Part shown: positions 16,291 through 59,261 of the stretch, piece by piece | Position numbering within the stretch: position 1 is the first letter of the stretch | Layout of the letters: each line of letters starts with the position of its first letter | Assembly (NCBI GenBank): GCA_032128375.1 | Contig: JAQBGU010000135.1 | Location: 7,213-71,212 of the forward strand | Length of the DNA stretch: 64,000 bases | Reading direction: 5' to 3' | DNA from: Deltaproteobacteria bacterium | Lineage (GTDB): Bacteria; Myxococcota_A; UBA9160; SMWR01 | Program-made: the position numbers and the translations under genes | Notes under the pieces: generated by a model | The model's input: only the letters and a program-made list of their open reading frames with translations | What the model was told of the DNA's origin: nothing | Databases searched by the model: none

Positions 16291-16866
16291 GTGTTGAATC
16301 TCGCCGCTGAAACCGACCCGACTTGGGTCGACCGAGCCCTCGCTGATCTCGAGGAGCTGCTCCTCGACCACGCGCACTGCGAGCGCAAGGCCGCGGGCTT
16401 GGCCGTACGCATGATGTTCCGCTACCCCGACCTTGGGTACTTGCACGAACCGTTATCGCGGCTGGCGCGTGAGGAACTCGCCCACTATGAAGAAGTGCTG
16501 CGCGTGATCGGTGCCCGCGGCGGTGTACTGCGGCGCCAGAAACCCAGCTCCTACGCGGGCCAACTGACAAAGGCGATTCGAGGCCGGGAACCGGAAAGGC
16601 TGATCGACACATTGGTCGTGGCCGCGATCATCGAGGCCCGCAGTTGCGAACGCTTCAAACTGCTGGCGGCTGCGGTCGGCGACCCGACACTGGCGAAACT
16701 CTACAGTGGTCTGCTGGCTTGTGAGGCGCGCCATCACAACATCTACTTCGAGCTGGCGGTCCGCGCCGGCGGCGAGGTCGTCGCCAAAGATCGGCTGCGC
16801 GAACTCGCCGCGCGCGAGGCTGAAATCCTGTCGACCCCCGGGCCGAGCGTTCGAATGCACAGCTGA
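16291..16866 (+). CDS. miaE: tRNA-(ms2io6A)-hydroxylase MiaE-like di-iron protein
   Basis: LLLDHAHCERKAAG ... LAREELAHYEEVL ... IIEARSCERF ... LACEARHHNIYFEL is the MiaE four-helix di-iron pattern. GTG start. Confidence 0.8.
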   Translation: MLNLAAETDPTWVDRALADLEELLLDHAHCERKAAGLAVRMMFRYPDLGYLHEPLSRLAREELAHYEEVLRVIGARGGVLRRQKPSSYAGQLTKAIRGREPERLIDTLVVAAIIEARSCERFKLLAAAVGDPTLAKLYSGLLACEARHHNIYFELAVRAGGEVVAKDRLRELAAREAEILSTPGPSVRMHS

Positions 16867-45561: not shown

Positions 45562-45652
45562 AGGCTCTCCAACATGACCTGCCAAAATGGCGGCTGGCTC
45601 GCTTGCTGACCACGGGGCCCCACCTGAATCCGCTGATGCGAATCCCCATGCG

Positions 45653-45706
45653 TCTCTCAGTTCTCTCAGTTCTCTCAGTTCATCCAGTTCATCCAGTTCA
45701 TCCAAT
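45653..45706. repeat. 9-bp tandem repeats: TCTCTCAGT x3 then TCATCCA(G/A)T x3
   Basis: Read directly. The array sits in the region shared by the two divergent ORFs. On the minus strand it would read ELDELDELDELRELRELR, and on the plus strand SLSSLSSLSSSSSSSSS. Confidence 0.9.
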
Positions 45707-45775
45707 TCTTCTCTGAGTACATCTCCCGATGCGGAAAGATGCGGAAAAGGGGCACGGATCTTACCATCAGTTGCA

Positions 45776-47581
45776 ATGGGGATGTCAGAGGCGATCGAAA
45801 ACTCAGCGCAGCGCATTTACGAAAGAAGACTGAGGGCGCGCGAACTCGACGCGGAAAGGCGTGGTCGGCGCGCCTCGATCACGTCGAATCTGCGCCTTGT
45901 CGTGTTTTTCTCGGGGGTGCTGATCGCCTGGCTGGTGTTTGGCACGCGCTCAATGGCAGCTGGCTGGCTCGGGCCGCCCGCGGCCACGTTTGCTGTGCTG
46001 CTGGTGGTACACGACCGGCTGCTGACGCGAAAAGATCGAGCGCTGCGTTCAGTGGCGTTCTACCAGCGCGGCCTGGATCGGCTCAACGCCAGTTGGTCGG
46101 GTGGCGGGGAGCCTGGCGAGCGGTTCCGGGATGCGCACCATCCCTATGCCGATGATCTGGATCTGTTCGGTGAAGGATCGCTATTCGAGCTGTTGTGCAC
46201 CGCTCGGACCCGCGCGGGTGAGGAGCGTCTGGCCCAGTGGCTACTGGAGCCTGCGGCTCCCGATGCGATTCGGGCGCGGCAGGAAGCCGTTGCGGAACTA
46301 CGCGGCCGCCTCGACCTGCGCGAGGATCTGGCGCGGTTGGGCGATGAGGTGCGGGCCGGCTTGCACCCCGAGGCGTTGAGCAACTGGGGCAACGCTCGGG
46401 CAACGCTGGACTCGCGAGCGTTGGCCGTTGCCGCAGCCGCCATGGCGGGACTGACCGTTGCCGGACTCCTGGTGTGGATCTTGACGCCGCTCGGTGCGTT
46501 TCCCTTTGGCGTCGCGCTGCTGGTAGGGACGGGATTCACCATGACGGCAAACCGCCGGGTGTCCGCTGTGATCCGCGCGATGCAGGCGCCGGCCCGCGAT
46601 CTTTCGCTGTTTTCGCACCTGCTCGAGCGCTTGGAGAGCGAGTCCTATGCTTGTGCGATGTTGGTCTCGCTGCGCGCAGAACTCGATGAGGACGGCGCTC
46701 CGCCATCCAAGCAGATCGCTCGACTTCGCTTGTTGATCGATCTGATCGATGCCAGCCGAAATCAGCTGTTTATTCCGATTGCATGGATGTTGTTGTGGAA
46801 TCTGCAACTCGCCTGCGCGATCGACCGATGGCGCGTGAAGTGTGGTCCGGCGCTATCGCGCTGGATCGACGCGGTGGGAGAATTCGAGGCGCTCTCGGCA
46901 TTTTCGACCTTTGGCTACGAACACCCGGATTTCCCGTTTCCGGAAATCGTCGAAGACGCAGTGCATTTCGAAGGCACAGCACTGGGACATCCTCTGCTGC
47001 CAGCCGATCGTTGCGTCCGCAACGATCTGAGTCTGATTGCGCCATTGCAGGTCCTGATCGTCAGCGGCTCGAACATGTCCGGAAAGAGTACGCTGATGCG
47101 AACGGTCGGGACCAATACAGCGCTCGCGCTGGCGGGTGCTCCGGTGTGCGCCCAGAGCCTACGCCTGGCACCTGTGTCGATTGGTGCGTCGATTCGGATT
47201 CAAGATTCGCTACAGGAGGGGAGTTCGCGCTTCTACGCCGAGATCTTGCGCTTGCGCCAGATCACAGAACTCGCGCGCGAGCACGGGCCGGCGCTCTTCT
47301 TGCTGGATGAGATTTTGCACGGGACGAACTCACACGATCGCGGCATCGGTGCTGAGGCCGTTGTGCGCAGCCTGGTCAAATCGGGCTCGATTGGCATCGT
47401 CACCACCCATGACCTCGCGCTGACCCAGCTAGCCGATGCGTTGGAGGGGCGCGCTCGGAACGTCCATTTTCAAGATCACTTGGAAGAAGGCGTTATCAAA
47501 TTCGATTACCGGATGCACCCGGGAGTGGTGACCAAGAGCAACGCGCTGGAATTGATGCGAGCGGTTGGGCTCGAAGTCTGA
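45776..47581 (+). CDS. MutS-related ATPase (MutS domain V only) with N-terminal transmembrane segments
   Basis: The start is set at MGMSEAIENSAQRIYERRL (ATG 45776). Hydrophobic helices include LRLVVFFSGVLIAWLVF. The C-terminal ABC-type ATPase has VSGSNMSGKSTLMRTVG ... FLLDEILHGTNSHDR ... TTHDL. Confidence 0.8.
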   Translation: MGMSEAIENSAQRIYERRLRARELDAERRGRRASITSNLRLVVFFSGVLIAWLVFGTRSMAAGWLGPPAATFAVLLVVHDRLLTRKDRALRSVAFYQRGLDRLNASWSGGGEPGERFRDAHHPYADDLDLFGEGSLFELLCTARTRAGEERLAQWLLEPAAPDAIRARQEAVAELRGRLDLREDLARLGDEVRAGLHPEALSNWGNARATLDSRALAVAAAAMAGLTVAGLLVWILTPLGAFPFGVALLVGTGFTMTANRRVSAVIRAMQAPARDLSLFSHLLERLESESYACAMLVSLRAELDEDGAPPSKQIARLRLLIDLIDASRNQLFIPIAWMLLWNLQLACAIDRWRVKCGPALSRWIDAVGEFEALSAFSTFGYEHPDFPFPEIVEDAVHFEGTALGHPLLPADRCVRNDLSLIAPLQVLIVSGSNMSGKSTLMRTVGTNTALALAGAPVCAQSLRLAPVSIGASIRIQDSLQEGSSRFYAEILRLRQITELAREHGPALFLLDEILHGTNSHDRGIGAEAVVRSLVKSGSIGIVTTHDLALTQLADALEGRARNVHFQDHLEEGVIKFDYRMHPGVVTKSNALELMRAVGLEV

Positions 47582-47986: not shown

Positions 47987-48090
47987 TTTTCGATCTCCTG
48001 CGCGCGGACGTCACCGGGTCTGTGCTCGGCGACGCTACAGTGAACGGGTACCTCAGCGAAGGTAACCCTGAACCGCACAGGGAGTCACCC

Positions 48091-49299
48091 GTGCCCAACC
48101 ACCCGACCCGACACGAGATCCAACTACTCGACGGACGCTTTTACGCCGCCGATCCGCATCCATTCTTTGAGTGGATGCGCGACAACGCCCCGGTCTACTG
48201 GGACGATTCCTGGAAGATCTGGGGCGTCACACGACACGCCGACATCATGGCCTGTTCGAAACAGCCAAGGCTGTTTTGTAGTGGGCAGGGTTCGCGTCCG
48301 GATTCACCGCCGATACCGTCGATGATCAATCTCGACGATCCGCTTCACAAACGGCGTCGCAATCTGGTCAACCGCGGCTTCACACCCCGCCAGGTCGACA
48401 TCCAGGAAGACAAGATCCGAGGGATCTGCCGCGAACTGATCGACCGTGCCCTCGAACTGGATACGTTCGATTTCGTCAAGGAAGTCGCCGCACCGCTGCC
48501 GATGATCGTGATCGGCGACATGCTGGGTGTCGCGCCGCAGGATCGCGACAAGCTGCTGCGTTGGTCCGATGACTTGATCCTGGGAACCTCCGCGACCGCG
48601 ACACCGGAGGCCGCAGCCAACGCGGCCAAATCGGCCGGTGAATACATCGGGTATGCGCGCGAGGTGATTTCGGATCGCAGGGCGAGACCCCCTCAGGACG
48701 ATTTGATGAGCGCACTGGTCCACGCGGAAATCGACGGTCAAAGCCTCGATGACGACGCGCTGATTCAGGAATCGCTGCTCATTCTGGTCGGCGGCGACGA
48801 GACGACGCGCCACGTGATCAGCGGCGGGATGGAGCAACTGATCCGCAACCCAGACCAACAGCAAAAACTCGTCGACGATCCCGCAAAGATCCCTGTTGCG
48901 GTCGAGGAAATGCTTCGCTGGGTGACGCCGATCCAGAATATGTCCCGAACCGCCACGCGTGATGTGGAGCTGGGCGGCGAGACGATTCGAAAGGGTGACC
49001 GGCTGCTGCTGCTGTATCCCTCAGGGAACCGCGATGCCGCCGTGTTCGACCACCCATATCGGTTTGACGTCGAGCGCAGCCCGAACGACCACGTGGCATT
49101 TGGCGGTTACGGCGCTCACTTCTGTCTCGGTGCGCCACTCGCTCGCCTCGAGTTGAGAGTGATGTTCGAGGAGCTGGTCGGGCGGGTCTCAGGCCTCCAA
49201 CTCGTCAAGAATGAACCGCTGCCGATCCGCAAGTCGAATTTCATTGCCGGAATCGAGCGGATGGAAGTCCGCGTCGAGACAACCGCCGCTCGTGAATGA
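48091..49299 (+). CDS. cytochrome P450
   Basis: Heme-binding loop FGGYGAHFCLGAPLARLE, an ExxR (EEMLRW) and an I-helix LILVGGDETT. A GTG at 48091 lies 6 nt after AGGGAG; the tracked start is 48022. Confidence 0.92.
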   Translation: MPNHPTRHEIQLLDGRFYAADPHPFFEWMRDNAPVYWDDSWKIWGVTRHADIMACSKQPRLFCSGQGSRPDSPPIPSMINLDDPLHKRRRNLVNRGFTPRQVDIQEDKIRGICRELIDRALELDTFDFVKEVAAPLPMIVIGDMLGVAPQDRDKLLRWSDDLILGTSATATPEAAANAAKSAGEYIGYAREVISDRRARPPQDDLMSALVHAEIDGQSLDDDALIQESLLILVGGDETTRHVISGGMEQLIRNPDQQQKLVDDPAKIPVAVEEMLRWVTPIQNMSRTATRDVELGGETIRKGDRLLLLYPSGNRDAAVFDHPYRFDVERSPNDHVAFGGYGAHFCLGAPLARLELRVMFEELVGRVSGLQLVKNEPLPIRKSNFIAGIERMEVRVETTAARE

Positions 49300-51898: not shown

Positions 51899-52056
51899 TG
51901 GGCGACAATTCGCGCCCATCCGGCCCACCCCGGCCAGCACGGTTCGCCCCAATTGCGGCCGTCGTCGGGCCGAATGCTTTGATAGACTCTCGTATCGCCC
52001 GTATCGCCGAAAACCGCTGCCTAAGCATCGATACCTATCCGAACGAGGAGAACACG

Positions 52057-53022
52057 ATGAAGCGCTTCATCCAGCACGAAGAACTCGCGCGCGACAGCCG
52101 ATTCATTCGTCAAACTAACGCCGTTGCGAGCGTACTTTCATCGATGCCCGATGACGTCGACCGCGTCGTCGAGGTCTTCGAACAACTCGATCCGATGATC
52201 GCGCAATCGGTAATCGGGACTGCGGCCGAGGCGCTCTATGATGAGTACGGACCGGCCTTCGGGTTGATCACGCTCAACGAACCGCTCGATCCGAACCACA
52301 CCGCAACACTGGGCGCGCGCATGCGGCTGGTCCTGCGCATGCACGGGATCTTTGCCGGCGAGCTTCAGGCCCTCGAAGGCGCTGGCCGATCGCTGTGGGA
52401 CTTCCCGGACGCTCCGTGGGAGTTCAAGATGAACATGGCGCGCCAGTGTTGGGACGAGGCGCGTCACGTGCAGATCTTCGAGAAGCTGTTGAACCACGTC
52501 GGTGGCGAGATCGGGATGTTCCCAGAGGCCACGTTCCTGTTCGAATGCGCATGTGCGGACGACCCCGCCCAGCGCGTCGCGGGCGTCAATCGCGCACTCG
52601 AAGGGCTCGCCTGTGACGTCTTTCGCGACATGATCAAATACGCGACGCAGACGGATGACGAGTTGATGCGCCAATCGATCGACTACGTGCTTGCGGACGA
52701 GTTGACCCACGTACGGTTCGGCAGCGAATGGGTCAAGGAATTCACGAAGGATGACCCGGAACGCTTCAAAGCTGCACGGAATTTTCAGCGCGAGGTCGAC
52801 AAGCAATTCAGCTTTGGAGGCGCCCGGTCGGCACGCGAGGACGCGGCCATTCCGATTGCCTGGGACGACCGGCTCGAAGCCGGATTCAGCGAGGAAGAAC
52901 TGCAAGAGCTGGCCCAGGTTTCGGGCGGCGGTCCGTCTCGAGAAACTTTGCGCAAGGCGGCCCAAATCCTCGGCGAGCGACACCGCGCCAAGCACAATCG
53001 CACCGCGGAGGTCGCGCAATGA
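52057..53022 (+). CDS. ferritin-like di-iron carboxylate protein (DUF455-like)
   Basis: The ATG at 52057 is 6 nt after GAGGAG. The four-helix ligand pattern is AGELQALEG / CWDEARHVQIF / NRALEGLACD / LADELTHVRFG, i.e. E, ExxH, E, ExxH. Confidence 0.7.
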   Translation: MKRFIQHEELARDSRFIRQTNAVASVLSSMPDDVDRVVEVFEQLDPMIAQSVIGTAAEALYDEYGPAFGLITLNEPLDPNHTATLGARMRLVLRMHGIFAGELQALEGAGRSLWDFPDAPWEFKMNMARQCWDEARHVQIFEKLLNHVGGEIGMFPEATFLFECACADDPAQRVAGVNRALEGLACDVFRDMIKYATQTDDELMRQSIDYVLADELTHVRFGSEWVKEFTKDDPERFKAARNFQREVDKQFSFGGARSAREDAAIPIAWDDRLEAGFSEEELQELAQVSGGGPSRETLRKAAQILGERHRAKHNRTAEVAQ

Positions 53023-53720
53023 GCGAAGAAAAAGGCGAAGTTCCGAAGGAAGGCCGGATGTATCCGGGCATGCGCCAGGACGAGAGGACCGTCTTCGAAC
53101 CCTATTCAGCGTTCGATATCCCGGCCGATCTCCGTGAGCTGCATGGTCGCTACGACGTCGTCGCCACCGCGCTTCGAGTGCGCAACTTCCGTTACGCAGA
53201 AGAGTGGATGATGATGATGATGGGAGGTTGGCTCGCCACGATTCCCGAGCTTCCGGCCAAGACGGGGCTCGCGAAGGTGATCTGGGAGACCGCGCAAGCT
53301 GCGGACGCGCTCGGCAAGCGGCTCCCGGAGCTGCGCTGTGGGCGCAAGGCGGCGACCGCCTCCGAATCCGCCAACCAGGCGTTCGCCGACTTCATAGAAG
53401 CAGTTTCCGAGCCCGAGAGTCCCGACCTCACAGTCGAGAAGCTGACCGGAATCGTCGACGTGCTCAAGCCTCACCTGATTCAAGTCTATGAAAAGACCGC
53501 TCGCGAAACCGACCAGATCTGCGACGCGCCGACGATCGAACTGCTGGAAGACATCGTGCGCAAGACCCGGCGGCATGTGAGCTGGGGCAAGGAGGTGCTG
53601 GACCGATTGTGCGATACAGACGCGAAGCGACAGCGTCGTCAGCATCGCTCCAGCCAATTGCAAGCGCAGCTCGAGGTCTGTGGCGGAGTGACAGGCGAGT
53701 TGACAGTGGCAAGCGCCTGA
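53019..53720 (+). CDS. hypothetical helical protein, probable degenerate ferritin-like partner subunit
   Basis: Its ATG overlaps the upstream stop (ATGA at 53019..53022). It contains RYAEEWMMMMMGGWLATIPE and IWETAQAADALGKRLPELR but no paired ExxH motifs. Confidence 0.55.
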   Translation: MSEEKGEVPKEGRMYPGMRQDERTVFEPYSAFDIPADLRELHGRYDVVATALRVRNFRYAEEWMMMMMGGWLATIPELPAKTGLAKVIWETAQAADALGKRLPELRCGRKAATASESANQAFADFIEAVSEPESPDLTVEKLTGIVDVLKPHLIQVYEKTARETDQICDAPTIELLEDIVRKTRRHVSWGKEVLDRLCDTDAKRQRRQHRSSQLQAQLEVCGGVTGELTVASA

Positions 53721-53808
53721 ACGATCGGCTCACTGCCACACCCGGCCTGACGCAGGGATCGGGCTCGAGAACTGATTTCGGACTGAGGTTGATACTGAGG
53801 ATGAATAG

Positions 53809-55053
53809 ATGGGTGAAGTGCTCGAGCTCTCTGAACGCGCATGGGCGGGCGAACTCGGCGCAACAGAGATTCACCCAAGCCGTGCGCTAGTCGGTCTCGA
53901 GGAGTTCGACACCGGCCTGGCATTCATGTCGGCGTTTTCGAACGTCGCGGTGATCGACACCGCGGAAGGCTTGGTGTTCATCGATACAAGCGGTCCCTTT
54001 CACGCAGCGAAGGTCCACCAATGCGTGCGAGCGTGGTCGGATCGGCCTCTGAACACCGCGATCTACACACACGGGCATGTCGACCACGTTTCGGGGCTGG
54101 GCGCATTCGAGGCGGAACTCGACGGTCCGAAAGTGCGTGTGATTGCGCACACGGCCTGCCCAGCGCGCTTCGACCGCTACCGGCTGACCCACGGCTACAA
54201 TGGCGTGGTCAACATGCGCCAGTTCGGCTTCCCAAAGCCGCTGTTTCCAAAGGAGTTTCGTTATCCGGACGAGACACTGCAGGAAAGCCGGGTGCTCGAA
54301 ATCGGCGGCGAGCGTATCGAACTCTTCCACGACAAGGGCGAGACAGACGACCACCTGTGGGCCTGGCTCCCAGATCGCAAGACGCTGTACACAGGTGACC
54401 TGTTTATCTGGGCCGCTCCCAACTGCGGCAACCCACAGAAAGTCCAGCGGTATCCCCGCGAATGGGCAATCGCGCTGCGAAAGATGCAGGCGCTGGGTGC
54501 CGAGCGGTTGTTCCCAGGCCACGGGCCGCCGATTCTGGGTGTCGACAGGGTCAACCGCGCGCTCTCAGAATCGGCCGAACTGCTCGAGACATTGGTCGAA
54601 CAAACGCTGGTGTTGATGAACGAGGGCATGCGGCTGAATGACTTGCTTCACGAAATCGAACTCCCCGAACACCTGCTCGCGCGGCCGTACCTGCGCCCCG
54701 TCTATGACGACCCGATGTTCATCGTGCGAAACCTGTGGCGGCTGTACGGGGGCTGGTACGACGGCGATCCTCCGAGTCTGAAACCGGCGCGGGACATCGA
54801 TGTCGCGCGGGCGCTCGCCGAACTGAGCGGAGGTGCCCGCACGTTGGCGAAGCGCGCCGAGCAATTCGCCGCAGAGGGCGAACTGGCGGTGGCTTGCCAT
54901 CTGGTCGAGTTCGCCTGGCGAGCTGCGCCCGAGGATTCCGGCATCGCATCGATCCGAACCGTGATCTACCGATTGCGCGCAGAATCGGAGCGGAGCTTGA
55001 TGGCCAAGGGGATTTTCGGCGCCGCGGCCCGCGATTCGGATCCAGCCACGTAG
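53809..55053 (+). CDS. MBL-fold metallo-hydrolase, alkyl/aryl-sulfatase-like (no SCP2 tail)
   Basis: Metal motif IYTHGHVDHVSG with later ETDDHLW and PGHG. The helical dimerisation-type region (LNDLLHEIELPEHL ... YDDPMFIVRNLWRLYGGWYDG) is typical of SdsA1/BDS1-like enzymes. Confidence 0.75.
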   Translation: MGEVLELSERAWAGELGATEIHPSRALVGLEEFDTGLAFMSAFSNVAVIDTAEGLVFIDTSGPFHAAKVHQCVRAWSDRPLNTAIYTHGHVDHVSGLGAFEAELDGPKVRVIAHTACPARFDRYRLTHGYNGVVNMRQFGFPKPLFPKEFRYPDETLQESRVLEIGGERIELFHDKGETDDHLWAWLPDRKTLYTGDLFIWAAPNCGNPQKVQRYPREWAIALRKMQALGAERLFPGHGPPILGVDRVNRALSESAELLETLVEQTLVLMNEGMRLNDLLHEIELPEHLLARPYLRPVYDDPMFIVRNLWRLYGGWYDGDPPSLKPARDIDVARALAELSGGARTLAKRAEQFAAEGELAVACHLVEFAWRAAPEDSGIASIRTVIYRLRAESERSLMAKGIFGAAARDSDPAT

Positions 55054-55099: not shown

Positions 55100-56155
55100 G
55101 TGGGGTTGAAGCGCGCAGGTATTCTGGCAGTGATCTGCGCAGCGTTGCTTCTGACGCTAGGCCCGATTCTCGGACAGAACTTCAATCCCGTGGTCGACGG
55201 ATCCATCTACCGGAGCGCACAACTGGACGCTGAGGATCTCGCGTTGCGGGCAGCCGAGTTCGGGCTCGCATCGATCGTCGCGGTACGGCCGGCGCGACCC
55301 AGCAAGGCGTGGTACACCGCCGAAAAATCCGTTGCCGACACGCTCGGACTGAAGCTGGTCAACGTGAGTCTCAGCGCAGACCGGATGCCGTCGCGCCAAC
55401 GCCTGCAAACGCTGGTCGGAGCGTTGGATGCCGCGCCGCGTCCGATGCTGCTGCATTGCCGAGCAGGCGTCGAACGCAGTGGCCTCGCGGCAGCAGTCGC
55501 GCTGCTTCTGGAGGGGGAGTCGGTCGAGTCCGCCCGCGGACAATTTTCGCTTCGATACGGTTTCCATCCATGGCTGTCTCAATCGGACCTGCCACGGGTC
55601 CTGGATCGATACGAGCAATGGCTGGAAGTTTCGGGCATCGACAGTTCGGCTGAGAATTTCCGCGGCTGGGTCGACGCTGTCTACGTCGCGGCGTTTTACA
55701 AAGCCGACCTCGAGATCGTCGATTTTGATGCCGACGCGCGGGCCGGTCAACCGATCCCGTTTTCGTTGCGGGTCACGAACCGGAGCCCAGACACGCAGCA
55801 TTTTCGAGCGGCGAACGATTTCGGAGTTCACGTCTCCACGCTGATCGAGGGGATCAGCAGTCCCGATTATCGACACGAGGGGCGCTGGGGAAGGCAAGAT
55901 GTCGATGTGGCTGCCGGCGCATCCCATGTTTTTGATATCGAATTAGCGGCTCTGCCCAGTGCTGGGATGTATCGATTGACCATCGATCTCGTCGACGAGA
56001 GTGTTGCGTGGTTTTCGGATATGGGGTCGACGGTTCTGGTTCGGGAATTCGAGTTGGGACCGGTTCCCGAGGTCGCCGCAGGTCCAGTGGTGATCGAGCA
56101 ACAGAACGAATTCGAGGCGGAACGCGATCGGCCAGCGAGGTCGCGAACCGAGTGA
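55100..56155 (+). CDS. membrane-anchored protein-tyrosine/dual-specificity phosphatase-like protein with an unknown C-terminal domain
   Basis: An N-terminal TM helix is followed by the CX5R P-loop LLHCRAGVERSG. The last ~190 aa have no family I recognise. Confidence 0.65.
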   Translation: MGLKRAGILAVICAALLLTLGPILGQNFNPVVDGSIYRSAQLDAEDLALRAAEFGLASIVAVRPARPSKAWYTAEKSVADTLGLKLVNVSLSADRMPSRQRLQTLVGALDAAPRPMLLHCRAGVERSGLAAAVALLLEGESVESARGQFSLRYGFHPWLSQSDLPRVLDRYEQWLEVSGIDSSAENFRGWVDAVYVAAFYKADLEIVDFDADARAGQPIPFSLRVTNRSPDTQHFRAANDFGVHVSTLIEGISSPDYRHEGRWGRQDVDVAAGASHVFDIELAALPSAGMYRLTIDLVDESVAWFSDMGSTVLVREFELGPVPEVAAGPVVIEQQNEFEAERDRPARSRTE

Positions 56156-56164
56156 AGACTCTGG

Positions 56165-57280
56165 TCACGCCCGTCTGTCGGCGCGCTGTAGCGCGCCGCG
56201 CAGGAAGCCCCGTTCGCGATTCAGCAGCTCTACGAGGCGCAATTGTGCGCGGAAGCGATCGAGGTTTTGGTTGGGGCGCTGGATCTTGAAGTAGACGTCG
56301 CCCTCCAGGTGGTCCGTCAGGAAGCGCGCGCCGTTTTCGAACGCCATCACGGACCCCGCGAGAGGCAGCACTTCGAGCTCCGCAGGCGTGAGGAGCGACT
56401 GCGCGCCCACGCGGTAACCGAGCGCTATCGCCTCCAGTAAATCGGATTCGATCGCCATCGTTTCGGTGCGAGTCTCGTCTTCGGGAGATCGACAGGCCGT
56501 AGTCCGGACCAGCTCACCGAAGTCGGAAAGGACCGTCCCGGTCATCACGGTGTCCAAGTCGATCACACACATTGCCTCGCCGGTTTGTTCATCCAACAGC
56601 ACATTGTTGATTTTGCAGTCGTTGTGGACGATTCGCTCCGGCAGTTCGGAGTGACCGGAGACAGACAACTCGGCTGAAAGCGACTCATAGGCAGCAGCCG
56701 TATGTTCGATTTCCCGGCCGAGAGAACGGGCACGCCCGTGCGAATCTGCGCCGACTGCCGCCTGCAAAGTGGCATAGCGGTGTGGCAGATCGTGAAAATG
56801 GGGGATCGTCTCGGCGAGTGGCGGAGCCGCCAACCCTTCGAGCAGGCGGACAAAATCGGCGAAAGCCCGGGCAGCCTGATAGGCCTGCGCTGGACTCTCG
56901 ACCGCGTCGACGCTGCGGGTCCGCTCCTGGAACCGGAAGCAGCGCCAATAGGCACCGTGTTCATCGAGCCAGATCGGAGAGCCGGATCGTGTCGCCATCA
57001 CCCGCAAGCAGCGCCGATCGGCATCCAAGACGCGAGCGTTCTCGAGCTCGCTTTGGAGGTGTCCGCAGATTCGGCCGATGTTGTCCATCAACGAGGTGGG
57101 GTCGCGAAATATGCCCGCATTGATGCGCTGGAGAATGTGGCGCTCGGGCGACCCGCCTGGGGCCAGTCCGGCCGAAACCGAGTGGCGGACGACGAATGTG
57201 TCGTGAATGTGTCCACCACCGATCGGCTCTGCACCTGCAAAGGTCCCGGAAATATTGAACTGTGCAGCGATGGTCTCCAC
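56165..57280 (-). CDS. APH-fold phosphotransferase (N-acetylhexosamine 1-kinase/NahK-like)
   Basis: FNISGTFAGAEPIGGGHIHDTFVV, the Brenner motif HNDCKINNVLLD, and VIDLDTV. A GTG at 57280 gives a family-like N-terminus; the tracked ATG 57367 adds 29 Arg/Pro-rich residues. Confidence 0.75.
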   Translation of the reverse strand: METIAAQFNISGTFAGAEPIGGGHIHDTFVVRHSVSAGLAPGGSPERHILQRINAGIFRDPTSLMDNIGRICGHLQSELENARVLDADRRCLRVMATRSGSPIWLDEHGAYWRCFRFQERTRSVDAVESPAQAYQAARAFADFVRLLEGLAAPPLAETIPHFHDLPHRYATLQAAVGADSHGRARSLGREIEHTAAAYESLSAELSVSGHSELPERIVHNDCKINNVLLDEQTGEAMCVIDLDTVMTGTVLSDFGELVRTTACRSPEDETRTETMAIESDLLEAIALGYRVGAQSLLTPAELEVLPLAGSVMAFENGARFLTDHLEGDVYFKIQRPNQNLDRFRAQLRLVELLNRERGFLRGALQRADRRA

Positions 57281-57566
57281 GAGAACGTGAGCATAGCGGC
57301 TGGGTCTTGGACGCGGGGCGCGAGTCGCGAACGGGACGGGCCTACACCCCAGTGAAGTCCTTCGCATGCGGGCGACGGCTGAACGGCTACCCTCGCATTC
57401 TGGACGGGTCTTCGACGATGATCAAATCAGGCAGTCTGCCGCGCATCGCCCACACGCTGCCGCGCAAGAATGCCGATACGCTGAATCGGAGCATGCTCCT
57501 TCGCTGGAGCTGTGCATGGCTGATAGGCTGGTCGCGCGCGGAACGTTGGAAAATGGATCGATAGCG

Positions 57567-59261
57567 ATGAGTTTTGCGCACCACGACGACGATCTGACGA
57601 TGCCGTTTACGTGTCCGGAGTGCGGCGACACCGGCGCCAGGCAGCGCTTCGCATCATTCCACTTCAGCTGTCCCGGATGCAACCTGAGTGTGGCGCACGT
57701 CGACTTGGCACCGACCGGAATAGTGCGAGAGGTGTTTGGCTGGCTGTTGCCCCCGGGCACGCTGCTGGCCGACCGATACAGGGTCAACAGTCTGCTGGGA
57801 CGGGGTGGCTTCGCCGCCACCTACGGTGTGGCGGATACGCGGCTTGCGAATCGACGCTGCGCGTTGAAGGAAGTCCCCCGGGTGTTGTTCGATAGCGGGG
57901 AGATGGAGATCCTCAGTCGGCTCGACCATCCCGGGATCCCCAACATTCGCGACAAGTTCGAGCTGGGCTCCATGGTGTACCTGGTCCTCGAATTCGGAGG
58001 CAGTCGCTCGCTGGCCACGGAGCGAATCCAGCGCGGCGGAACGATCCCGGCTGCCACGTTGTTGCCGTGGATCAGCCAGCTGTGCGGCGTGCTCGAGTAC
58101 CTGCATGCGCAAGACCCGCCGATCGTCCACCGGGATCTGAAGCCCGGCAATGTGCTGCTGACCGAAGGCGGCCGGATCAACCTGATCGATTTCGGGATCG
58201 CGAAAGAGACACTGACGGGCACGCAGACCCGGACGATTGCGCGCTCGGCAACCCATGGATTTTCGCCCCCAGAGCAGGTGTTGGGGACCGGGACCGACGA
58301 GCGATCCGACGTGTATTCGCTCGGCGCGACTCTCTTCCAGCTGCTGACCGGCCACAAGCCGCCGCCGGCTCACGAGCGTGTTGCGGGTGCGGAACTGGCG
58401 CGGCCCGGATCGCTGGTGGAGGGTGTTTCGCCGACGCTCGACGAGCTGATTCTGCGCGCGATGGAACTGAACATCCACAAGCGCATTCAATCGATCCGGG
58501 ATTTTGCGGCCCGGCTCGACGCGATTTCTGCCGGAGAGCCAATCCCGCTGATGTCGACCGACAGCCAGCGGCCATTGGCGGATGACGCCCCAACCCTCGG
58601 ATCCGATCGCAGACTACCCGCGAACCTGTCGGACGCTGAAACGCTCTATCTGGGGAGCGACCCACCGGCATTCCAGACGTCGAGTCGATCGGGTGAAACA
58701 CGGCGATTCTCGGCGGCTCTCGTCGCATGGTTGGTATTCGGGTTGGCAGGAGTCGGCGGCGCGATGTGGTGGCTGCAACGCGAACCCGCGGCACGCAGCG
58801 AGCGGCCCGCCCAGGTTGCCGCGGTTCCGGAGCCCCAGCCGCCCGCGTTGGGTTCGCAAACTGATGTCGCTTCGCCAACAGCCCCACCGATAGCGATCGC
58901 TCCCGAAGCGAATGCACCGGCAACACCCGACTCCGTTCGCGAATCCGCCGGGGTCCAGCTAGAACCCGATTCCGAACCGCAATCGACCCCTGATTTGGCT
59001 CGGATCCAGCCGGAACGGCAATCGATTCCGGTCCCGATTCCGGTCCAAAGTCGGATCGAGCCCGGGCCGAGTGTGGATCCCGTTGCACCGGCTCGGTTGG
59101 TGCCACCACCCAGCCGGCCAGTCGTCAGTACCTTGGCGTCGGATGGCGTCGAGCCGGTTCCATCCGGAACGAGTGAACAAGTGGAGCCCCGCTCCCCGGA
59201 CCCCGCCAAGCCGAATTGGGGAGCGGGATTCAAGAAGGGGTCAGTCCGGCGCATCGATTGA
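57567..59261 (+). CDS. Ser/Thr protein kinase with N-terminal zinc ribbon, one TM helix and a Pro-rich C-terminal tail
   Basis: The zinc ribbon is CPECG...CPGC. Hanks motifs are GRGGFAATY, ALKEV, HRDLKPGNVLL, DFGIAK and SPPE. The TM helix is AALVAWLVFGLAGVGGAMWW. Start at MSFAHHDD (ATG 57567). Confidence 0.88.
   Translation: MSFAHHDDDLTMPFTCPECGDTGARQRFASFHFSCPGCNLSVAHVDLAPTGIVREVFGWLLPPGTLLADRYRVNSLLGRGGFAATYGVADTRLANRRCALKEVPRVLFDSGEMEILSRLDHPGIPNIRDKFELGSMVYLVLEFGGSRSLATERIQRGGTIPAATLLPWISQLCGVLEYLHAQDPPIVHRDLKPGNVLLTEGGRINLIDFGIAKETLTGTQTRTIARSATHGFSPPEQVLGTGTDERSDVYSLGATLFQLLTGHKPPPAHERVAGAELARPGSLVEGVSPTLDELILRAMELNIHKRIQSIRDFAARLDAISAGEPIPLMSTDSQRPLADDAPTLGSDRRLPANLSDAETLYLGSDPPAFQTSSRSGETRRFSAALVAWLVFGLAGVGGAMWWLQREPAARSERPAQVAAVPEPQPPALGSQTDVASPTAPPIAIAPEANAPATPDSVRESAGVQLEPDSEPQSTPDLARIQPERQSIPVPIPVQSRIEPGPSVDPVAPARLVPPPSRPVVSTLASDGVEPVPSGTSEQVEPRSPDPAKPNWGAGFKKGSVRRID

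Follow-up and report, generated by a model that had tools for sequence, protein, structure and literature searches.

The present study describes three successive genes, designated A, B and C, in a 64,000-nucleotide stretch of contig JAQBGU010000135.1 (positions 7,213 to 71,212, forward strand) from a Myxococcota metagenome-assembled genome. This whole stretch is referred to as the window. A codes for a ferritin-like protein of the DUF455 family, B for a helical protein which, judged by its alignment with A, is a degenerate paralogue of A, and C for a hydrolase of the metallo-beta-lactamase (MBL) fold (Table 1). In a preliminary description of this DNA the first two genes were taken as a translationally coupled pair, one catalytic and one degenerate, and all three together as a candidate for an undescribed oxygenase system. 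The positions of the genes, the ATGA overlap and the gap of 88 bp before C could all be confirmed from the sequence; the start codon of B (ATG, 53019-53021) overlaps the stop codon of A (TGA, 53020-53022). Public gene calls on the same contig give identical proteins of 321, 233 and 414 aa, which are named "uncharacterized ferritin-like protein (DUF455 family)", "hypothetical protein" and "alkyl sulfatase dimerization domain-containing protein", respectively. The ratio of nonsynonymous to synonymous substitution rates (dN/dS) against the two closest relatives was 0.035-0.12 for all three genes (A 0.035-0.08, B 0.05-0.10), with dS near saturation in this comparison. By these ratios, A and B are under strong purifying selection. 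As B has more than 1000 homologue clusters and dN/dS is low, A, B and C are real genes and not chance open reading frames (ORFs).

Table 1. Features of the A-B-C locus, in positions of the window
Feature	Position	Strand	Remarks
Shine-Dalgarno-like GAGGAG	52045-52050	+	6 nt before ATG of A; read from the sequence
Gene A	52057-53022	+	321 aa; DUF455 ferritin-like; presumed catalytic (alpha) subunit
Four-helix core of A with six predicted diiron ligands	52360-52710	+	alignment-based
Ligand codons in A	E102 52360; E134 52456; H137 52465; E182 52600; E215 52699; H218 52708	+	
A/B coupling junction	53007-53022	+	GGAGG at 53007-53011, 7 nt upstream of the ATG of B, then ATGA
Gene B	53019-53720	+	233 aa; predicted degenerate paralogue of A; presumed non-catalytic (beta) subunit
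N-terminal arm of B	53055-53159	+	residues 13-47, RMYPGM...FEPYSAF...DLRELHGRYDV; about 20 invariant positions across 81 sequences
Former metal-site positions of B	53199-53576	+	hhalign mapping to the ligands of A
A E102 to B E61			
A E134 to B T91			
A H137 to B A94			
A E182 to B K150			
A E215 to B T183			
A H218 to B H186			
Gene C	53809-55053	+	414 aa; MBL-fold hydrolase with alkyl-sulfatase dimerisation domain; starts 88 bp after B

A matches the Pfam model of DUF455 (PF04305) with 89.8 bits against a gathering cutoff of 34.3 (E 2.7e-25). The match covers positions 56-247 of the 247 positions of the model, short of full-length coverage, and the first 83 residues of A lie outside it. The complete diiron ligand set E, ExxH, E, ExxH which had been noticed earlier is found in the motifs ELQALEG (E102), DEARH (E134, H137), ALEGL (E182) and DELTH (E215, H218). 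It was found that these six ligands do not vary in any of 54 close homologues, and they are invariant also in all 19 sequences of an alignment of diverse relatives which includes Acidimicrobiia and both stand-alone and fused proteins. The profile of the A family aligns through all four ligand helices with bacterioferritin of Desulfovibrio desulfuricans (E 6e-7), including the D-E-x-R-H motif. The single sequence of A aligns with the ExxH, E and ExxH motifs of R2-like ligand-binding oxidase (R2lox), a weaker match than that to bacterioferritin, as is the match to aldehyde-deformylating oxygenase (ADO). Thus all six ligands align properly with the motifs of bacterioferritin and R2lox. On both sides of the core A carries conserved extensions, of about 90 aa at the N-terminus (with an ARDxRF motif) and about 100 aa at the C-terminus. 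A plasmid collection held no homologue of B, and for A just two distant DUF455 matches. Identity of A with the tRNA hydroxylase MiaE was considered and rejected, since the window has a genuine MiaE gene at another place, 16291-16866 (+ strand; PF06175, E 9e-59). This MiaE is a second ferritin-like diiron enzyme of the window and is unrelated to A and B. An antisense ORF of 293 aa (52138-53019, - strand) spans nearly all of gene A and is a typical artefact of high-GC DNA.

B has no match in Pfam or NCBIfam at E <= 0.1, DUF455 included, and searches of PDB sequences with the B sequence and with the B-family profile returned noise only. At E <= 1e-3 there are 1040 clusters of homologues, of which the best 120 show 72-91% identity to B. 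When the families of A and B were compared by hhalign, a probability of 94.8% (E 5.5e-8) was obtained over 152 columns with the helices in register. B itself has no hidden Markov model (HMM) match to DUF455, and its homology to A is detectable only by such profile-profile comparison; the B-family HMM matches A ORFs weakly. The alignment places the six ligands of A on positions of B which mostly can no longer coordinate a metal. Among 81 B sequences of the close clade, E61 and H186 are kept, that is two of the six ligand positions, while positions 91, 150 and 183 vary among residues which do not coordinate, and alanine stands at position 94 in 73 of the 81. The remainder of the protein holds 82 positions which are invariant in these sequences. 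B was described earlier as helical, with some acidic positions in YAEEW, IWETAQ and IELLED and without a paired ExxH; all three motifs are present, and no [E/D]xxH motif occurs anywhere in the protein. On the strength of this alignment B is taken as a degenerate paralogue of A from which the metal site has been lost.

The AlphaFold2 model of B is a helical bundle with a mean predicted local distance difference test score (pLDDT) of 84.6 and a predicted TM-score (pTM) of 0.77, in which an N-terminal arm of about 45 residues is poorly predicted. In this monomer model the mean pLDDT of residues 11-40 is 46-57; it falls below 50 at residues 22-36 and rises at residues 41-47. After the last helix B has a conserved GG[V/I][T/A]G motif. 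A Foldseek search of the model against the PDB, one of the checks proposed earlier, ranked the beta subunit of toluene-4-monooxygenase hydroxylase (chain B) at the top with a query TM-score (TMq) of 0.64-0.68, followed by PaaA/PaaC (TMq 0.5-0.58), TenA/CADD and Dps-like proteins. As the Foldseek E-values of B are weak (5e-3), the search speaks for the fold class and the analogy but does not place B in any of these families. Stand-alone B-like proteins of the Acidimicrobiia type (L088-L091) retain potential ligands, namely E61, HxxH at positions 91/94, E183 and D186, along with H160, and may bind a metal.

The conservation of the pair was followed in two surveys comprising 160 loci. In the survey of genomes, which started from B, one genome per species was taken and 80 loci were obtained in which B is 62-91% identical; their neighbouring genes were called with a filter on GC content at third codon positions (GC3). 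These are metagenome-assembled genomes, mostly labelled Myxococcota or Deltaproteobacteria, with Alpha- and Gammaproteobacteria and a few others. A adjoins B in 75 of these 80 loci; among the five exceptions are two where B lies at the end of a contig. The commonest junction is the same 4-bp overlap of A and B (21 of 39 scored loci). B precedes A in some Gammaproteobacteria, Immundisolibacterales and Acidimicrobiia, where the two genes nevertheless adjoin or overlap. Pairwise distances of A and of B are correlated across 72 genomes (r = 0.74). The metagenome survey, which started from A, gave 80 loci with B present in 45, and every A which is at least 66% identical and has room on its contig is accompanied by B. 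Co-occurrence analysis thus found A and B to be co-conserved, and B is the usual, though not universal, gene neighbour of A. In one genome locus (L050:7041-8675, + strand) a single ORF of 544 aa contains the first ~215 residues of A and the full B. A frameshift or an assembly artefact may have produced this ORF, or else it is a rare fusion in which A comes before B.

In many distant homologues of B one chain of 406-467 aa carries both parts, an N-terminal B-like domain and a C-terminal DUF455. At least 457 clusters of such B-A fusions were found, some of them named from genomes of Chloroflexia, Thermomicrobiales and Syntrophorhabdaceae. The six ligands are invariant in the DUF455 half of the fusions, and the ARDxRF motif matching the N-terminus of A is kept. 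The first ~33 residues of B are missing and the bundle is kept. This absence of the arm would fit an arm which clamps A when the two chains are separate. The fusion P0143 is 37% identical to A and 35% to B, and BLAST of A against it recovers the B-like domain as a second segment (E 1e-4). The B-like domain also has a weak sequence match to TmoE (E ~0.02). The single-chain model of P0143 has a pLDDT of 86.4 and, despite a disordered linker, a pTM of 0.87; judged by pTM alone, we read it as a confidently packed two-domain unit. Foldseek ranks bacterioferritins and Dps first for this model, and fused relatives match Pfam Ferritin. Another fusion of 499 aa, P0271, comes from a contig crowded with fragmented genes and was left out of the evidence for fusions. 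Fusion loci of the Chloroflexota type (L092-L096) are situated near carbohydrate genes such as sugar ABC transporter, alpha-amylase, GH106, PfkB kinase, DeoC aldolase and AP_endonuc_2. In L093-L095 the fusion gene is followed by a protein of 450-700 aa without Pfam match, partly conserved among these three; L096 has an unannotated protein of 431 aa at the equivalent position which is unrelated to it.

C contains a Lactamase_B domain (E 3.8e-18) and the dimerisation domain Alkyl_sulf_dimr (PF14863, E 2.7e-25, residues 277-409), so both parts of an MBL hydrolase with an alkyl-sulfatase dimerisation region, as it had been described, were found. The zinc motif HxHxDH is intact as HGHVDH (residues 88-93, 54070-54087). 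The best sequence matches in the PDB are sec-alkylsulfatase (4av7/2yhe), YjcS and SdsA1. Like the type III alkyl sulfatases SdsA1, Pisa1 and YjcS, C has an MBL domain with HxHxDH and a dimerisation domain. It differs from the solved enzymes in length (414 against 630-670 aa), and the match starts about 80 residues into them. There is no Pfam match to the SCP-2-like C-terminal domain in C, which ends at residue 414, just past the dimerisation domain. As this protein of 414 aa lacks the SCP-2-like domain of the solved enzymes of 633-668 aa, C should not be filed as an alkyl sulfatase.

In the window the pair is surrounded by genes for a Sel1-repeat protein, a cytochrome P450, the MBL hydrolase, a phosphatase and kinases. 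The sole neighbour which recurs across the genome loci is a TetR regulator, found directly upstream of the pair on the same strand in 16 of the 80; a member of the TetR cluster is held by 18 of the 80, and the gene is not there in the window. Genes downstream of the pair are highly variable, and their largest cluster is found in 6 of the 80 genome loci. TetR, short-chain dehydrogenase, luciferase-like, P450 and acyl-CoA genes near the pair are weak hints of function. The other branches have neighbourhoods of their own. Loci of Acidimicrobiia show the context EamA / B-like / (DUF455) / ~185-aa hypothetical / ABM / sigma-70, in which the DUF455 gene is missing in L088-L090. The conserved neighbours of these loci and of the Chloroflexota fusions have no homologue in the window or in the 80 close loci, and therefore no function can be transferred from them. 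Type I sulfatases (PF00884) lie near A genes that stand without B (the solo-A clade) in six loci (L145, L149, L150, L152, L153, L156), and in one syntenic group of this clade genes for GST, M48 peptidase and a CitMHS_2 transporter recur.

Several observations from the surroundings may be recorded here. The P450 of the window lies at 48022-49299; P450s 34-38% identical to it occur within 8 kb of the pair in 11 of the 80 genomes, and in four loci (L015, L016, L023, L065) a P450 is directly upstream of A and divergent. In these P450-rich genomes an excess of P450s near the pair over the background could not be told. The 158-bp region upstream of A (51980-52040, + strand) has a tandem CGTATCGCC CGTATCGCC and short GATA...TATC palindromes, and could be a candidate operator; no regulatory meaning could be read from the small palindromes there. 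A search for riboswitches and other RNA families around the three genes found none, and promoter and terminator prediction around them gave no informative call. Downstream of C there is a block of a PTP/DSP-like phosphatase (55100-56155), an APH-like kinase (56165-57367, - strand) and a Ser/Thr protein kinase (57366-59261), and this block (55100-59261) is syntenic in the two closest relatives (L007, L008) only. A MutS2-like protein (45587-47581, + strand) with MutS_III and MutS_V domains has a long serine-rich low-complexity N-terminus (SLSSLSSLSSSSSSSSSNSS).

Our data indicates that A and B could be a ferritin-like diiron oxidase or oxygenase of the alpha/beta type, a two-subunit enzyme in which A would be catalytic and B its structural paralogue, and on the whole we consider this rather likely. 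The idea of a catalytic and a degenerate ferritin-like protein resembling PaaA/PaaC has found support on five lines, namely the profile homology of A and B, the fold of B, the conserved adjacency and coupling of the genes, the natural fusions and the invariant ligands of A. None of the three refuting observations named in the preliminary description was made; for an interaction of A and B the evidence, that of the fusions and of the fusion model, is indirect. B would have arisen by duplication of an A-like gene, after which the metal site was lost and E61 and H186 were left. A could bind a dinuclear iron (or Mn/Fe) centre through E102, E134/H137, E182 and E215/H218, activate O2 and oxidise a substrate which is probably a small molecule. 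B could be playing the role of a structural partner, with its helical bundle and the conserved N-terminal arm packed against A, in the manner of TmoE in the bacterial multicomponent monooxygenases and of PaaC in PaaAC. With stop and start codons overlapping, translation of the two subunits would tend to be coupled. Since no dedicated reductase is linked to the pair, the electrons would come from a general cellular reductant. The term undescribed oxygenase is plausible for the pair alone.

It should be noted here that a number of observations weigh against this reading. Full-length homologues of A which are 53-62% identical have no B within 4 kb on either side; this solo-A clade comprises the metagenome loci L142, L144, L149, L150, L152, L153, L155, L156, L157 and L171, and it follows that A-type enzymes can exist without B. 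Conversely, B is found without adjacent A in L022 and in some loci of Acidimicrobiia, and no A was found in L079 or L086, where the gene calls are poor. Because of the solo-A clade and of the loci with B and no A, B would be an accessory subunit of particular branches and not a universal need. No reductase, ferredoxin or other conserved third partner is present among the recurrent neighbours in the 80 loci. The solved structures closest to A by sequence are bacterioferritins, which are ferroxidases rather than oxygenases. The structural proxy for an A:B complex is the single-chain model of one fusion which is 35-37% identical. In the literature searched every mention of DUF455 was incidental, PF04305 was never discussed and no characterised member was found.

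The closeness to bacterioferritin raises the question whether the pair could instead be an iron-handling protein or one which detoxifies peroxide or O2 (a ferroxidase or a rubrerythrin-like protein), with catalytic and non-catalytic chains as in H/L ferritin. The best sequence match among solved structures is indeed a bacterioferritin through all four ligand helices, the fusion model and the fused relatives point in the same direction by their ranking of bacterioferritins and Dps and their matches to Pfam Ferritin, and no reductase or substrate-related gene is conserved nearby. However, the long extensions of A and the two-domain fusions fit poorly with ferritins which form cages, the top structural matches of B are oxygenase beta and PaaC-type subunits, a TetR regulator, as found upstream in 16 of 80 loci, typically goes with small-molecule metabolism, and iron-homeostasis genes were not seen among the recurrent neighbours. 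Such a role is therefore regarded as unlikely. Another thought is that B is not a structural subunit of A but its substrate, a carrier, a sacrificial partner whose arm or GGVTG tail is modified by A, or a regulator of A. The aromatic-rich arm (residues 13-47) is nearly invariant yet mostly of low confidence in the monomer model, the GG[V/I][T/A]G motif after the last helix is conserved, and the TenA/CADD folds among the structural neighbours of B include a self-sacrificing enzyme. Against this, the natural fusions drop the arm and keep the bundle, which makes the bundle the conserved functional unit of B, and the homology of B to A extends through the entire four-helix core, just as it does in the alpha/beta pairs already known. 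We hold a role of this kind to be very improbable.

The place of C was decided by its distribution. If A, B and C belonged to one oxygenase-plus-hydrolase pathway, as the preliminary description had it, a (sulfate) ester could be hydrolysed by C and then be oxidised by A/B, or the reverse. The three genes lie on one strand with a gap of only 88 bp and no terminator detected, C follows the pair also in L007 and L008 and is under purifying selection, and the type I sulfatases near the solo-A clade are a loose thematic echo. But C is next to the pair in only two of the 80 genome loci, the two closest relatives just named, and in none of the 80 metagenome loci. These two relatives share with the window also the flanking PTP, APH, kinase and Sel1 genes, which indicates recent common ancestry rather than functional linkage of C. 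The wide variation of downstream neighbours and the missing SCP-2 domain of characterised alkyl sulfatases also speak against the pathway; the MBL-type ORFs in five further loci are of different types and at different positions. As 78 of 80 genome loci and every one of the metagenome loci lack C, the three-gene oxygenase system was not supported and such a pathway is quite unlikely. C stands beside the pair as a neighbour particular to this lineage, outside the conserved module.

The two-subunit oxidase or oxygenase proposed for A and B may be compared with systems already characterised. A catalytic subunit with a degenerate ferritin-like paralogue as partner is an architecture well known from PaaAC and from the multicomponent monooxygenases. 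In phenylacetyl-CoA epoxidase (PaaABCE) a catalytic diiron subunit, PaaA, is combined with a homologous subunit without metal site, PaaC, as proposed for A and B. However, A and B have no PaaA_PaaC match in Pfam at E <= 0.1, the TMq of B is modest, and PaaB, PaaD, a PaaE-like reductase and paa pathway genes were not seen near the pair. In toluene-4-monooxygenase the beta subunit TmoE is likewise a ferritin-like paralogue without metal site which supports the catalytic alpha subunit TmoA. Here the difference is that A and B have no match to Pfam Phenol_Hydrox and that A has 321 aa against about 500 aa of the alpha subunit; no gamma subunit, effector, Rieske ferredoxin or reductase was present among the recurrent neighbours of the pair. 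The link of the pair to the multicomponent monooxygenases is the structural similarity of B to TmoE only. Bacterioferritin, R2lox and ADO have the same six-ligand dinuclear site as A, but they are homo-oligomers without a degenerate partner, and their similarity to A is confined to the ligand helices. BioE is an ADO-like homodimeric ferritin-like oxygenase with an unexpected reaction and is distinct from A/B (PMC12704756). With PF04305 itself, which belongs to the ferritin-like clan, A shares the E / ExxH / E / ExxH ligand set, and it differs from the Pfam model in having its own N- and C-terminal extensions and a degenerate paralogue which is adjacent or fused. What is new is the occurrence of the known architecture in DUF455, with a partner from an unannotated family and with the link between the two confirmed by natural fusions.

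A more far-reaching proposal is that the A/B pairs, the B-A fusions and the solo-A proteins together make up a widespread class of DUF455-based diiron enzymes that has gone unrecognised. In it a degenerate paralogue would repeatedly have been kept as partner, and its O2-dependent reaction would be one which no ferritin-like oxygenase has so far been assigned. Such a class is possible and still rather doubtful. The hints differ from clade to clade: for the pair they point to TetR-regulated lipophilic metabolism, the fusions lie in carbohydrate loci, and solo-A has sulfatases as neighbours. If the chemistry proves to be new, a class would be added among the ferritin-like diiron oxidases, and no new pathway with the MBL hydrolase would be established thereby; so far the A/B pair has brought no mechanistic surprise. 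The B family has more than 1000 homologue clusters and yet no Pfam or NCBIfam model, and thus awaits annotation as a new protein family. In DUF455, a large family of ferritin-like proteins in which the diiron site is intact, one branch is a conserved two-gene or fused module. With a complex of A and B, this branch would gain a defined quaternary architecture and a clear target for co-expression.

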